The translations under genes were made by a program, and so were the position numbers. Source: a virus (taxonomy: Duplodnaviria > Heunggongvirae > Uroviricota > Caudoviricetes). From it: DNA of 4,629 nucleotides. The stretch lies in IMG/VR virus record IMGVR_UViG_2671180979_000009, one strand, 5' to 3'. Within the stretch, counting starts at the first letter, position 1, and every line of letters starts with the position of its first letter. The notes below the pieces were generated by a model that worked only from the letters and a program-made list of their open reading frames with translations, was not told the origin of the DNA and ran no database searches. Below are positions 413-4,607 of the stretch, in pieces.

Positions 413-1110
413 TGCAGGATATTCACGAAGAAAGTCTGAACGAGTCGGTTAAATCAGAGCAGTCACCGCGGGTGGTGCTCTGGGAAATTGACCTGACGGT
501 GCAGGGCGGTGAGCGGTATTTTTTCTGTAATGAGCTGAATGAAAAAGGGGAGCCGGTCACCTGGCAGGGGCGGCAATATCAGGCATACCCGATTGACGGC
601 AGCGGTTTTGAGATGAACGGGAAGGGCAGCAGTGCCCGCCCGTCGCTGACGGTGTCCAATCTGTTTGGCCTTGTCACCGGGATGGCGGAGGACCTGCAGA
701 GTCTGGTGGGGGCCACGGTGGTCCGCCGCCGGGTGTATGCCCGTTTTCTGGATGCGGTGAATTTCGTTGCGGGCAATCCGGAGGCGGACCCGGAGCAGGA
801 GCTGAGTGACCGCTGGGTGGTGGAGCAGATGTCGCAGCTGACAGCCATGACGGCCTCGTTTGTGCTGGCTACACCGACCGAGACGGACGGAGCGCTGTTT
901 CCCGGTCGCATCATGCTGGCGAACACCTGTATGTGGGATTACCGGGGAGATGAATGCGGTTATCACGGTCCTGCGGTGGCGGATGAGTTCGACAACCCCA
1001 CCACGGATATCCGTAAGGACAGATGCAGCAAGTGCATGCGCGGGTGTGAGATGCGCGGCATGGTGGCTAATTTTGGCGGTTTCCTTTCCATTAACAAACT
1101 TTCGCAGTAA
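412..1110 (+). CDS. L: minor tail protein L (lambda gpL-like), 232 aa, with C-terminal Cys-rich (Fe-S cluster type) region
   Basis: ATG 412 overlaps the M stop. Product MQDIHEESLNE...VVLWEIDLT...GERYFFCNE...NFGGFLSINKLSQ follows lambda gpL essentially end to end. C-terminal cysteines (NTC, DEC, DRC, SKC, RGC) are present. The track ORF from 385 is an upstream extension in the same frame; 412 is preferred because of the TGATG coupling. Confidence 0.85.
   Translation: MQDIHEESLNESVKSEQSPRVVLWEIDLTVQGGERYFFCNELNEKGEPVTWQGRQYQAYPIDGSGFEMNGKGSSARPSLTVSNLFGLVTGMAEDLQSLVGATVVRRRVYARFLDAVNFVAGNPEADPEQELSDRWVVEQMSQLTAMTASFVLATPTETDGALFPGRIMLANTCMWDYRGDECGYHGPAVADEFDNPTTDIRKDRCSKCMRGCEMRGMVANFGGFLSINKLSQ
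673..1110 (+). repeat. direct repeat copy 1 (L C-terminal coding region, ~438 bp)
   Basis: Aligns base for base with 1704-2141 at a constant offset of 1031 bp, ending exactly at the TAA stop. About ten substitutions counted by eye. Confidence 0.9.
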
Positions 1111-1115
1111 ATCCA

Positions 1116-2141
1116 ATGACACAGACAGAATCAGCGATTCTGGCGCATGCCCGGCGGTGTGTGCCTGCGGAGTCGTGCGGCTTCGTGGTGAGAACGCCGG
1201 AGGGGGAGCGGTATATCCCTTGTGTGAATATCTCTGCAGAGCCGGAGGCGTATTTTCGTATTGCACCGGAAGACTGGCTGCGGGCAGAGATGCAGGGGGA
1301 GATTGTGGCACTGGTCCACAGTCATCCCGGTGGTCTGCCCTGGCTGAGCGAGGCCGACCGGCGGCTGCAGATAAAAAGTGCACTGTCCTGGTGGCTGGTC
1401 TGCCGGGGGGAAATTCATAAATTCCGCTGTGTGCCACATCTGACAGGACGGCGCTTTGAGCACGGGGTGACGGACTGTTACACGCTGTTCCGGGATGCCT
1501 ACCATCTGGCGGGAATTGATATGCCGGATTTTGAGCGTGAGGATGACTGGTGGCGCAACGGTCAGAACCTGTACCTGGACAATATGGAGGCGACTGGTTT
1601 TTACAGGATTTCCCTGCCTTCCGCACAGCCTGGCGATATCCTGCTGTGCTGCTTTGGCGCATCGGTGGCCAATCATGCCGCCATATACTGCGGCAACGGT
1701 GAAGTCACCGGGATGGCGGAGGACCTGCAGAGCCTGGTGGGGGCCACGGTGGTCCGCCGCCGGGTGTATGCCCGTTTTCTGGATGCGGTGAATTTTGTGG
1801 CGGGCAATCCGGAAGCGGACCCGGAGCAGGAGCTGAGCGACCGCTGGGTGGTGGAGCAGATGTCAGAGCTGACGGCCATGACAGCCTCGTTTGTGCTGGC
1901 TACACCGACCGAGACGGACGGAGCGCTGTTTCCCGGTCGCATCATGCTGGCGAACACCTGTATGTGGGATTACCGGGGAGATGAATGCGGTTATCACGGT
2001 CCTGCGGTGGCGGATGAGTTCGACAACCCCACCACGGATATCCGTAAGGACAGATGCAGCAAGTGCATGCGCGGGTGTGAGATGCGCGGCATGGTGGCTA
2101 ATTTTGGCGGTTTCCTTTCCATTAATAAACTTTCGCAGTAA
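1116..2141 (+). CDS. chimeric ORF: tail assembly protein K N-terminal ~196 aa (MPN/JAMM motif plus truncated NlpC/P60 region) fused in frame to the C-terminal ~145 aa of minor tail protein L
   Basis: Residues 1-196 (MTQTESAILAHARRC...HSHPGGLPWLSEAD...DCYTLF...NHAAIYCGNGE) parallel the intact K at 3870-4607. From VTGMAEDLQSLVG to INKLSQ the protein is the L C-terminus, nearly identical to L residues ~88-232. The switch lies at nt ~1702/1704. The frame is uninterrupted and ends at TAA 2139-2141. Confidence 0.7.
   Translation: MTQTESAILAHARRCVPAESCGFVVRTPEGERYIPCVNISAEPEAYFRIAPEDWLRAEMQGEIVALVHSHPGGLPWLSEADRRLQIKSALSWWLVCRGEIHKFRCVPHLTGRRFEHGVTDCYTLFRDAYHLAGIDMPDFEREDDWWRNGQNLYLDNMEATGFYRISLPSAQPGDILLCCFGASVANHAAIYCGNGEVTGMAEDLQSLVGATVVRRRVYARFLDAVNFVAGNPEADPEQELSDRWVVEQMSELTAMTASFVLATPTETDGALFPGRIMLANTCMWDYRGDECGYHGPAVADEFDNPTTDIRKDRCSKCMRGCEMRGMVANFGGFLSINKLSQ
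1704..2141 (+). repeat. direct repeat copy 2 (L C-terminal coding region, ~438 bp)
   Basis: Near-identical to 673-1110. Differences seen include agt/agc, ttcgtt/tttgtg, gag/gaa, tcgcag/tcagag and aac/aat. Similarity stops at the stop codon on the 3' side and at the K'/L' junction on the 5' side. Confidence 0.9.
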
Positions 2142-2150
2142 TGGATTATG

Positions 2151-2172
2151 CCCACCATCAGGTGGGTTTTTT
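2151..2172 (+). terminator. intrinsic terminator-like hairpin downstream of the chimeric ORF
   Basis: CCCACC (2151-2156), loop ATCA, GGTGGG (2161-2166), then TTTTTT (2167-2172), 10 nt after the TAA. No U-tract follows the hairpin on the minus strand, so it reads as + strand specific. Confidence 0.6.
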
Positions 2173-2937: not shown

Positions 2938-3816
2938 ATGAAAAGTATAGCAAAGGCACAAAACGATTTCACTATCTTCAAATTCGGCGACAGTGAAATC
3001 CGCGTCATCAACAAGTGCGGTGAGCCGTAGTTTGTAGCTAAAGATGTTTGTGATGCTTTAGCTTTGACTAACTCACGCAAGGCGCTTACTGCACTTGATG
3101 ACGATGAAAAGGGAGTAACTTTAAGTTACACCCTTGGTGGTGAGCAGAATCTAAGCATTGTGAGCGAATCAGGTATGTATACATTGGTTCTGCGCTGCCG
3201 CGATGCAGTCAATAAAGGTTCAGTCCCGCACAAATTCCGCAAGTGGGTAACAGCAGAAGTTCTGCCTTCAATTCGCAAACATGGCGAGTATGTAAAAGGA
3301 AAGAAAACCACTGTTGAGGAAAGAACACCGCTACGCGATGCAGTAAACATGCTGGTAGGAAAGAAAGGACTTCGCAATGACGATGCATACAATATGGTTC
3401 ATCAGCGTTTTGGTATTGACAGCATTGATGAGCTTTCAATTGAACAAATCCCGCTTGCCGTAGAGTACATCCACAGGGTAGTGCTTGAAGGTGAATTCAT
3501 TGGCAAACAAGAGAAGAGCACCAACGAGCTTTCCGCAAAAGAAGCAAACAGCCTTGTATGGCTATGGGATTATGCCAACCGCTCACAGGCATTATTCCGC
3601 GAACTGTATCCGGCGCTAAAACAAATTCAATCGAACTATTCCGGCAGATGCTACGACTACGGTCATGAGTTCTCGTATGTTATTGGAATGGCGAGAGACG
3701 TTTTAATTAATCACACACGAGATGTTGATATCAATGAGCCAGACGGACCAACGAATCTTTCCGCATGGATGAGACTTAAGAATAAAGAATTACCTCCTTC
3801 ACCGCATCACTACTAA
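2938..3816 (+). pseudogene. ant: Bro-N domain antirepressor (Ant-like) gene interrupted by an in-frame amber codon at 3028-3030
   Basis: ATG 2938 preceded by AGGAAA (2925-2930). Translation [59 protein letters not shown]...[16 protein letters not shown] is a Bro-N antirepressor N-terminus, but TAG replaces the Trp of the conserved GEPWFVAKDV motif (TGG to TAG, one transition). The same frame then stays open to TAA 3814-3816; the track ORF 3064-3816 starts at TTG with no Shine-Dalgarno. Confidence 0.7.
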
Positions 3817-3834
3817 CAGATTGCCAACGAAATG

Positions 3835-3858
3835 ACCCAGCTTCGGCTGGGTTTTTAT
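3835..3858 (+). terminator. intrinsic terminator downstream of the antirepressor gene
   Basis: ACCCAGC (3835-3841), loop TTCG, GCTGGGT (3846-3852), then TTTTAT. AGGAG (3860-3864) and the K start codon follow immediately. Confidence 0.6.
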
Positions 3859-3869
3859 CAGGAGTTCTC

Positions 3870-4607
3870 ATGCTCTATAGCAATATATTGGCGCACGCCC
3901 GGCGATGTGCGCCAGCGGAGTCGTGCGGCTTCGTGGTGAGAACGCCGGAAGGGGAAAGATATTTTCCCTGCGTGAATATCTCCGGTGAGCCGGAAGATTA
4001 TTTCCGGATGTCGCCGGAGGACTGGCTGCGGGCAGAAATGCAGGGGGAGATTGTGGCACTGGTCCACAGTCATCCCGGTGGTCTGCCCTGGCTGAGCGAG
4101 GCCGACCGGCGGCTGCAGATAAAAAGTGCACTGTCCTGGTGGCTGGTCTGCCGGGGGGAAATTCATAAATTCCGCTGTGTGCCACATCTGACAGGACGGC
4201 GCTTTGAGCACGGGGTGACGGACTGTTACACGCTGTTCCGGGATGCCTACCATCTGGCGGGGACTGAAATGCCGGATTTTCATCGCGGGGATGACTGGTG
4301 GCGCAACGGTCAGAACCTTTACCTGGACAATATGGCGGTCACCGGCTTTTACCGGGTGCCCCTGTCCTCTGCACAGGCGGGCGATATTCTGCTGTGCTGC
4401 TTTGGTGCTTCGGTACCGAACCATGCCGCCATATACTGCGGCAACGGTGAGCTGCTTCACCATCTGCCTGAACAACTGAGTAAACGGGAGAGGTATTCTG
4501 AAAAATGGCAACGACGAACGCATTCTGTCTGGCGTCACCGCCACTGGCACGTATCTGCCTTCACGGGGATTTACAACGATTTGGCCGCCGCCTCAGCCTG
4601 TATGTGA
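3870..4607 (+). CDS. K: tail assembly protein K (lambda gpK-like; MPN/JAMM plus NlpC/P60 domains), 245 aa
   Basis: ATG 3870 with AGGAG 5 nt upstream. Product MLYSNILAHARRC...ALVHSHPGGLPWLSEAD (JAMM H-x-H-x7-S-x2-D)...GVTDCYTLF...NHAAIYCGNGELLHH...IYNDL matches the recalled long form of lambda gpK. The 3' end overlaps the I start out of frame. Confidence 0.85.
   Translation: MLYSNILAHARRCAPAESCGFVVRTPEGERYFPCVNISGEPEDYFRMSPEDWLRAEMQGEIVALVHSHPGGLPWLSEADRRLQIKSALSWWLVCRGEIHKFRCVPHLTGRRFEHGVTDCYTLFRDAYHLAGTEMPDFHRGDDWWRNGQNLYLDNMAVTGFYRVPLSSAQAGDILLCCFGASVPNHAAIYCGNGELLHHLPEQLSKRERYSEKWQRRTHSVWRHRHWHVSAFTGIYNDLAAASACM

Follow-up and report, generated by a model that had tools for sequence, protein, structure and literature searches.

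Gene content of the window and the antirepressor module

The DNA analyzed here (4,629 nt in its entirety, hereafter the window) covers part of a lambda-type tail cluster in which the tail genes L and K are each present as a full-length copy and as a fragment, and in which an AT-rich module (the cargo) is located between L and K. The following features were recognized, with X and Y denoting two haplotypes that are described below.

1-70, plus strand: partial tape-measure gene, 3' end only (colinear relatives carry the annotation tape measure protein)
71-412, plus strand: tail gene M, 113 aa (Pfam hit to PF05939, Phage_min_tail, at E = 3e-29; identity to sibling contig L008, 100%)
412-1110, plus strand: tail gene L, full length, 232 aa (Pfam PF05100, E = 2e-92)
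673-1110, plus strand: repeat pair A, copy 1, corresponding to L nt 262-699 (10 substitutions in 438 nt against 1704-2141)
853-1094, plus strand: R, a 242-nt exact repeat of 1884-2125 and site of the X-to-Y switch (zero mismatches; flanking allele pattern)
1116-1703, plus strand: K' fragment of haplotype Y with 196 codons (K nt 1-588; Pfam Prok-JAB and truncated NlpC/P60)
1116-2141, plus strand: in-frame K'::L' fusion ORF, 341 aa (Pfam Prok-JAB, NlpC/P60, and Phage_tail_L)
1674-1732, no strand: K'-L' junction at 1703/1704 (29-nt shared seed 1674-1702, A at 1703, 29-nt shared seed 1704-1732)
1704-2141, plus strand: L' fragment, which is repeat pair A, copy 2, L nt 262-699 (Y alleles at 1733-1883, X allele at 2126)
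2142-3888, no strand: cargo, an AT-rich P22 immI-like antirepressor module between L and K (GC content and comparison with relatives)
2150-2177, plus strand: terminator-like hairpin and T-run immediately 3' of the L' stop codon
2158-2412, minus strand: Arc-family ribbon-helix-helix protein, 84 aa, in an Mnt-like position (Pfam PF03869 Arc, E = 7e-9; relatives annotated as Arc family DNA-binding protein)
2522-2674, plus strand: Arc-family ribbon-helix-helix protein, 50 aa (Pfam PF03869, E = 3e-11)
2938-3816, plus strand: antirepressor gene ant (Bro-N and P22_AR_C) with an amber codon at 3028-3030
3835-3857, plus strand: hairpin CCCAGCTTCGGCTGGG followed by TTTTT, 3' of ant; next come an AGGAG ribosome-binding site and then the start of K
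3870-4607, plus strand: tail gene K (K2), full length, 245 aa, haplotype X (Pfam Prok-JAB and complete NlpC/P60)
4604-4629, plus strand: start of tail gene I, partial (by position; K and I overlap by 4 nt in annotated relatives)

The cargo is probably a moron, situated between genes that are adjacent in relatives and differing from them in base composition (GC 0.38-0.46 in the cargo versus 0.57-0.64 in the tail genes). Many Stx phages and 302 complete E. coli genomes carry the module at this L-K position, while the L-K junction is module-free, with L and K abutting, in about 1,900 genomes. Terminator-like hairpins are present at both cargo ends (5 found versus 1.4 expected), and the stem of the hairpin at 3835-3857 (family D3) was also picked up on the minus strand. 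Promoter-like sites were no commoner in the cargo than in shuffled sequence. When its TAG codon is read as Trp, ant matches Pfam PF02498 and PF10548 as well as PHROG 245 (E = 1e-110); judged by the amber codon, the gene is a pseudogene in the window. The responsible G-to-A change at 3029 is common to the sibling contigs L008-L011 and missing in L004, L006, and L007. By domain content, the cargo is a P22 immI-type antirepressor module with a putative regulatory role. A paper on an antirepressor insert between L and K was not found in the literature, which yielded only general papers on Stx phages and O157 prophages.

Direct repeats and haplotypes

Two pairs of direct repeats were recovered upon re-alignment, both far above chance, and by Pfam assignment they are paralogous copies of the tail genes L and K. 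In pair A, 673-1110 and 1704-2141 align without gaps and differ at 702, 765, 768, 783, 807, 834, 835, 843, 852, and 1095 (97.7% identity), in agreement with the preliminary description, which had counted about ten substitutions in about 438 bp at the same coordinates. All but one of these substitutions (9/10) fall in 673-852, and the following 242 nt are exact. In pair B, 1141-1702 is colinear with 3889-4450 inside K2 over 562 nt with 54 substitutions (90.4% identity), distributed as 83% identity in 1141-1289, a fully identical core of 224 nt (1290-1513), and 85% identity in 1514-1702. At their 5' ends, the K copies show no relationship to each other over 25 versus 19 nt (MTQTESAILAHA versus MLYSNILAHA), so the previously described 2-codon length difference is correct, as are the identical core and the greater divergence of this pair; the codons that differ at the start number about 5-7, however, and not about 12. 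The unequal divergence of the two pairs is real.

Four independent public draft contigs (L008-L011) correspond to window 1-1094 plus 1884-4629 without a 1,031-nt block. The amber codon in ant and the mosaic K2 are common to them and the window, which they match at 100% outside the block. Window 1-1110 differs from L008, L010, and L011 solely at 1095, and nine SNPs at 1733-1883 constitute all differences between window 1704-4629 and the siblings. Haplotype X comprises M, L, the Arc/Arc/Ant cargo, and K, and it is one haplotype that includes L(1-441) and K2, the latter being present in the siblings as an exact protein and DNA match. Full-length L carries X alleles up to 964, its C at 1095 is the Y allele, and its exact 232-aa protein is on record solely upstream of the cargo.

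The 1,031-nt block is haplotype Y and is made up of the L tail, K', and nt 262-441 of L'. Positions 965-1702 and 1704-1900 are each 100% identical to L005, a canonical L-K prophage, and the block is a rotated version of an ordinary L-K stretch that begins at L nt 262 and ends at K nt 587: once rotated, it gives a single colinear alignment with normal L-K loci (99.6%). The allele layout along the window is X-Y-Y-X, with the novel K-L junction located within Y-type sequence. Both parental architectures are common, and they co-occur in EHEC-type genomes that contain up to 18 such loci.

These results bear on the preliminary description, which had argued from unequal divergence against a simple recent tandem duplication and for recombination between two related lambdoid genomes. 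The first argument is upheld, as the repeat copies belong to X and Y and not to one parental sequence. The second is correct in that two haplotypes are present, but these are not the left and right halves of the window, since only the 1,031-nt middle is Y. The sibling comparison that had been proposed did reveal block-free L-cargo-K contigs, although these contradict an origin from two parental halves.

The K'-L' junction and its origin

The join reads GGTGAA/GTCACC, with no microhomology and no N. Base 1703 is A, while L005 as a proxy for Y has G at both K nt 588 and L nt 261. The A is a natural K allele, as GGTGAA is present in L004, L012, and L014 (the last a draft contig of 618 nt that aligns to window 1099-1703), and the join is therefore readable as a clean in-frame fusion of K nt 588 to L nt 262 at a codon boundary. 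Microhomology between the similar K CTGCTTCACC and L CTGGTCACC was considered and rejected, as a crossover there would retain a CTG that is missing from the window. A Chi site near the L breakpoint was rejected as well, since only 7/8 bases match (CCTGGTGG) and the site is missing in lambda-like loci with the same breakpoint.

None of the 5,426 complete E. coli genomes (about 16,000 L/K loci) and none of the 50,697 phage records contained the junction, and exact and degenerate junction patterns had no match in GTDB genomes (two scans), IMG/VR, or JGI metagenomes. Likewise, the K'::L' fusion protein had no identical product on record and no match among 5.8 billion protein clusters. The only other K-to-L fusion ORFs in the protein collection (P0002, P0006, and P0007) all lie on single-N scaffold joins between paralogous copies that are 95-99% identical, and two of the three begin L' at nt 259, within 3 nt of the window's nt 262. 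The pieces that meet at the junction look like contigs that often stand by themselves in drafts, L014 being an example; partial K proteins of 190-202 aa occur in thousands of assemblies, and the sibling contig L009 begins at L nt 227.

The longest repeated suffix ending at 1702 and the longest repeated prefix starting from 1704 are both 29 nt. In a de Bruijn test on X (L008) and Y (L005), k = 29 alone gives both breakpoints. The 29/29 pattern was spotted post hoc; for random breakpoints, the probability of equal odd tails in the range 15-127 is 0.0018 and that of 29/29 is about 8e-5. GapFiller, whose overlap is set to 29 nt by default, grows both gap edges base by base and stalls at the ambiguous extensions of repeats (PMC3446322), and gap-closing sites are prone to misassembly (PMC9575681). 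According to the K SNP map, extension from a 29-nt seed is expected to hit ambiguity sooner, at 1513 and 1570, and a GapFiller walk from the X flanks was rejected on the grounds that it should stall at one of these positions if K2 reads are in the pool. A node-centric k = 31 reading (30-nt tails) was also discarded: the K side fits only if 1703 is assigned to K, and the L side fails (29). In the scaffold joins of three other drafts (L001-L003), the edges lie in longer repeats (63-709 nt), so the 29-nt rule is neither backed nor contradicted there.

It is quite likely that the 1,031-nt block reflects an assembly, scaffolding, or gap-filling error that spliced pieces of a second, related prophage into X. 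The allele layout, the siblings without the block, the lack of the junction in every collection searched, and the 29/29 signature are observations; the join itself was probably made by software. An ordinary lambdoid tail-tip region X (M, L, immI-like Arc/Arc/Ant moron, K, and I) would have been interrupted by sequence from a second, cargo-less lambdoid prophage, the source of the Y block. The assembly path would exit X within the 242-nt stretch that is exact in X and Y (853-1094), run along Y past the L end, and halt 587-588 nt into K. It would then restart in Y at L nt 262, re-cross the shared stretch (1884-2125), and continue into the X cargo. A false K'-L' junction would form where the two halts abut at 1703/1704, and with it the fusion ORF and both nested pairs of repeats, and the unequal divergence would arise because the L C-terminal part is more conserved than the K N-terminal part among co-resident prophages. 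This model needs a Y whose alleles resemble those of X at L nt 459 and 468, a combination seen in L012. Counting against an assembly join are the missing N at the junction, where every comparable scaffold join has one, the natural K allele at 1703 with its clean in-frame fusion, and the earlier ambiguity expected at 1513 and 1570.

The preliminary description had predicted that recombination between the A copies would yield a deletion form, L-cargo-K. This form does exist in the four siblings, with the switch inside the 242-nt stretch, but, given that the junction bears the marks of an assembly join, it is more likely the actual arrangement than the outcome of a deletion. If the block is such a join, the cargo would lack the flanking substrates for precise loss that had been proposed; in the sibling structure it lies between single copies of L and K.

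A real and very recent duplication-insertion in a polylysogen is, in our estimation, unlikely. Here, the two ends of a Y segment spanning L nt 262 through K nt 588 would be linked in a single illegitimate event, via tandem duplication in Y or a small circle, and the joined segment would subsequently enter the L gene of X by homologous recombination in the 242-nt stretch. The N-free junction with in-frame read-through, the natural K allele at 1703, and the co-occurrence of two common parental architectures in EHEC-type genomes are all consistent with such an event, and inter-prophage recombination in O157 has been demonstrated experimentally (PMC2669165). Moreover, the product is expected to be unstable, as RecA or Red recombination between A copies would give the sibling form and between B copies would remove L' and the cargo, and this instability could explain why the structure is in no other genome. 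However, at least two rare events would be required, and their intermediates are not on record. The absence of the K-to-L junction from about 16,000 matched L/K loci of complete genomes, the restriction of all other recorded K-to-L fusion ORFs to N-joined scaffolds, and a join without microhomology also argue against it, and there is no biological reason for 29/29 flanks or for an L breakpoint at most 3 nt from those of scaffold joins.

A single illegitimate crossover between a cargo-less M-L1-K1 genome (at K nt 588) and L2-cargo-K2 (at L nt 262), a form of the recombination between two related genomes proposed in the preliminary description, appears very improbable. Each half taken singly does have canonical colinear relatives (98.8% for 1-1702 and 99.2% for 1704-4629), but the siblings place M, L1 with nine alleles at 702-852, the amber cargo, and K2 in one 100% haplotype. 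In addition, L' nt 262-441 carries the alleles of the other haplotype, and the genome with the cargo is therefore not the partner on the right side of the junction. Equally improbable are a tandem duplication in one phage with divergence and later cargo insertion, given that the cargo is widespread with the same boundaries but no duplication and that the copies match distinct present-day haplotypes at 100% instead of having diverged in place, and a selected functional K-L fusion protein, whose in-frame ORF keeps a complete JAB domain and the L C-terminal part but truncates NlpC/P60 and is on record nowhere else.

If the block is an assembly artifact, it serves as a warning against false partial tandem duplications and K::L fusions in polylysogenic E. 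coli and Shigella drafts, and such false fusions would already be present in protein databases under inconspicuous names, for instance 'phage minor tail protein L' (P0002, P0006, and P0007). Shared seeds of equal length flanking a junction may provide a quick test for assembly joins. If the junction is real, it could represent a rare, short-lived intermediate, caught before resolution, in the formation of mosaics by prophages that share a host, and a snapshot of moron and gene-segment movement among lambdoid prophages, resolvable to L-cargo-K or L-K, and would offer a PCR-testable system for repeat-mediated moron loss or transfer.

Comparison with known systems

Pseudo-tandem L/K arrangements are found in the draft scaffolds L001 (GCA_009896045.1), L002 (Shigella sonnei GCA_001247925.1), and L003 (GCA_009896165.1). 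As in the window, a K N-terminal piece is followed by an L C-terminal piece and in-frame K::L ORFs are called; the L/K copies are 95-99% identical, and the sequence at the gap edges recurs elsewhere in the locus. However, their joins carry a single N where the window has A, and these loci are cargo-free and encode a lambda-like L family that is about 75% identical to the L of the window.

The L-cargo-K arrangement in L008-L011, the 302 E. coli genomes, and Stx phages including 1717, YYZ-2008, and 2851 has cargo boundaries identical to those of the window, immediately 3' of the L stop codon and within the first K codons. None of these relatives has the K'::L' block, and those in complete genomes carry an intact ant, unlike the window and its siblings with their amber codon.

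The cargo itself resembles P22 immI (mnt, arc, and ant) in having two divergently transcribed Arc-family genes followed by a Bro-N/P22_AR_C antirepressor gene, with repeated half-sites (candidate operators) in the divergent promoter region. It differs from P22 immI in its location between the tail genes L and K and in its ant pseudogene.

Finally, Hendrix and colleagues reportedly proposed a mosaic model of lambdoid phage evolution that includes illegitimate-recombination intermediates; PMC2327257 and PMC3945230 are related work. The window is similar to such intermediates in its homology-free junction of two phage genes and in flanking repeats able to trim the structure to gene boundaries. 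Unlike them, it joins parts of the same haplotype, within an otherwise intact second haplotype, and bears an assembler-like 29/29 signature.

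Gene order and repeat pairs

The ORF listing and Pfam matches give the following gene order, in which the fusion ORF consists of a K N-terminal fragment (K', 1116-1703) and an L C-terminal fragment (L', 1704-2141).

Window start: tape-measure gene, 3' end
71-412: M
412-1110: L
1116-2141: fusion ORF of 341 aa, first 196 codons of K in frame with the last 145 codons of L
2142-3888: AT-rich insert (cargo)
3870-4607: full K (K2)
Window end: I, start only

The repeat coordinates and counts of the preliminary description hold on re-examination. The copies of the L repeat (pair A, 673-1110 and 1704-2141) differ by 10 substitutions in 438 nt, nine of which fall within 673-852, and 853-1094 forms an exact 242-nt repeat, R, with 1884-2125. 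The K repeat (pair B) is colinear between 1141-1702 and 3889-4450 and carries 54 substitutions in 562 nt, with an identical 224-nt core (1290-1513) between flanks that are 83-85% identical. About 12 codons had been said to differ at the K 5' end, where we find only about 5-7 codons to be unrelated.

Two prophage haplotypes in the window

Exact protein look-ups identified four draft contigs (L008-L011) that encode the exact L and exact K2 of the window together with the same split ant gene. At the DNA level, position 1095 is the sole difference from these siblings across window 1-1110, and 1704-4629 differs only at nine SNPs in L' (1733-1883); the siblings thus correspond to window 1-1094 joined to 1884-4629. 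On this sequence comparison, M, L, the cargo, and K2 constitute a single haplotype (X), with the rest belonging to a second haplotype (Y). A cargo-less canonical L-K prophage, L005, is 100% identical to 965-1702 and 1704-1900, and the extra 1,031-nt block, once rotated (1704-2125 followed by 1095-1702), gives one colinear alignment of 99.6% to ordinary L-K loci. The sibling and L005 matches therefore yield the layout X-left, R, Y (L tail and K nt 1-587), base 1703, Y (L nt 262-441), R, and X-right. This X-R-Y-Y-R-X order does not bear out the earlier proposal of one genome on the left and another on the right, and the presence of two prophage haplotypes explains the unequal divergence of the repeat pairs.

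Origin of the K'/L' junction

The K'/L' junction (1703/1704) was absent from 5,426 complete E. coli genomes, 50,697 phage records, GTDB genomes, IMG/VR, JGI metagenomes, and 5.8 billion protein clusters. A protein search returned three other K-to-L fusion ORFs (P0002, P0006, and P0007), and retrieval of their loci revealed a single N within each fusion, on scaffolds that hold several pseudo-tandem L/K copies of 95%-99% identity. Scaffolding joins thus account for all the other K-to-L fusions on record.

Single-N joins in the draft scaffolds
L001 (GCA_009896045.1): 4986 and 6657
L002 (Shigella sonnei GCA_001247925.1): 6399 and 7558
L003 (GCA_009896165.1): 6615 and 7654

L' starts at L nt 262 in the window and at nt 259 in two of the three fusions, placing the window breakpoint at most 3 nt from the scaffold-join breakpoints, a match that a random illegitimate event would produce about 1% of the time. 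The N-joined K::L fusion ORFs of public E. coli and Shigella sonnei draft scaffolds are databased as 'phage minor tail protein L'. Deletion-type in-frame L-to-K fusions, which may be genuine deletions in decaying prophages, are also on record (P0003, P0008, P0025, P0063, and P0067); P0003 originates from the complete genome NZ_CP182512.1, and in the 11 members of P0008 GDECG is joined to FVV.

The sequence on either side of the junction bears an assembler-like signature. The longest repeated suffix to 1702 and the longest repeated prefix from 1704 are both exactly 29 nt, and both junction flanks are 29-nt islands of X/Y identity with SNPs at their borders. When a sibling X (L008) and the proxy Y (L005) were combined in a de Bruijn test at k from 15 to 63, k = 29 alone gave both a Y-specific edge ending at K nt 587 and one starting at L nt 262. 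Random breakpoints would give equal odd tails of 15-127 with P = 0.0018 and the 29/29 pattern with P of about 8e-5; as this pattern was noticed post hoc, we discounted its weight. GapFiller, whose default overlap is 29 nt, extends both gap edges nucleotide by nucleotide, and the gaps that it leaves unclosed lie in repeats with ambiguous extension (PMC3446322). Base 1703 (A) lends further support to an artefact in that both Y proxy positions have G. Pieces of the window also look like routine draft contigs: the 618-nt contig L014 aligns to 1099-1703, one sibling contig begins at L nt 227, and thousands of assemblies include partial K proteins of 190-202 aa. Tiny stand-alone contigs covering only these first 190-202 K codons (contigs L013 and L014; proteins P0015, P0041, P0049, P0055, and P0059) are present in thousands of drafts, which makes K nt 580-605 a recurrent contig break in polylysogen assemblies.

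We consider an assembly or gap-closure artefact to be the most likely source of the duplication. This explanation would need the source Y to carry alleles resembling those of X at L nt 459 and 468, a combination that occurs naturally in L012; weighing against it, a walk from a 29-nt seed would be expected to hesitate at 1513 and 1570 as well. A genuine, very recent duplication-insertion is unlikely, although the window contains no N and the A at base 1703 occurs elsewhere as a natural K allele, which permits the join to be read as an in-frame fusion of K nt 588 to L nt 262 at codon boundaries. Also in its favor, prophages have been documented to recombine with one another in O157 (PMC2669165), and the flanking direct repeats of 438 nt and 562 nt would make the structure unstable and therefore rare. 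Such an event would require at least two rare steps, an illegitimate join within Y and its transfer into X by homologous recombination, for which the record holds no intermediate. Both a simple tandem duplication and the exact two-parent model proposed earlier are contradicted by the DNA comparison with L008-L011.

The cargo between L and K

The cargo is common among complete E. coli genomes: 302 have the L-cargo-K arrangement, whose span falls short of the window's by exactly 1,031 nt, and approximately 1,900 have plain L-K. Many Stx phages also contain the cargo. The 3' part of K2 (4262-4552) has 18 SNPs relative to the cargo-linked K of complete-genome relatives and is identical in the sibling contigs, and alleles at L nt 291-441 reassort between cargo-bearing and cargo-less prophages (L004, L005, and L007). 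These SNPs and this reassortment are natural mosaicism around the cargo.

Genes of the cargo
2158-2412, minus strand: Arc-family gene
2522-2674, plus strand: Arc-family gene
2938-3816: antirepressor gene ant (Bro-N and P22_AR_C domains), interrupted by TAG at 3028-3030

The GC content of the insert is 0.38-0.46 versus 0.57-0.64 for the tail genes, and each end carries a terminator-like hairpin. Its 5' boundary (2139-2160) lies immediately 3' of the L stop codon and its 3' boundary (3855-3895) within K, of which about 30 nt including the start are replaced. K is re-initiated by a new AGGAG ribosome-binding site and ATG, so that its N-terminus, MLYSNILAHA in place of MTQTESAILAHA, is shortened by two residues. 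The two Arc-family genes are transcribed divergently, and the region between them (2412-2522) contains repeated half-sites (CACCGTGATA, CACATTGATA, CACAGTGATA, and the palindromic TATCACAGTGTA), all of them candidate Arc/Mnt-type operators. The amber codon in ant is in frame (TGG to TAG, G-to-A at 3029); the gene is intact in three complete-genome relatives (L004, L006, and L007), and because L008-L011 share the mutation, it marks a lineage-specific pseudogene and not a read error. The insert behaves as a moron and is similar to a known system, the immI module of P22. The underlying biology (an immI-like moron at the L-K boundary, with ant broken by a lineage-specific amber codon) can already be found, annotated, in many genomes.
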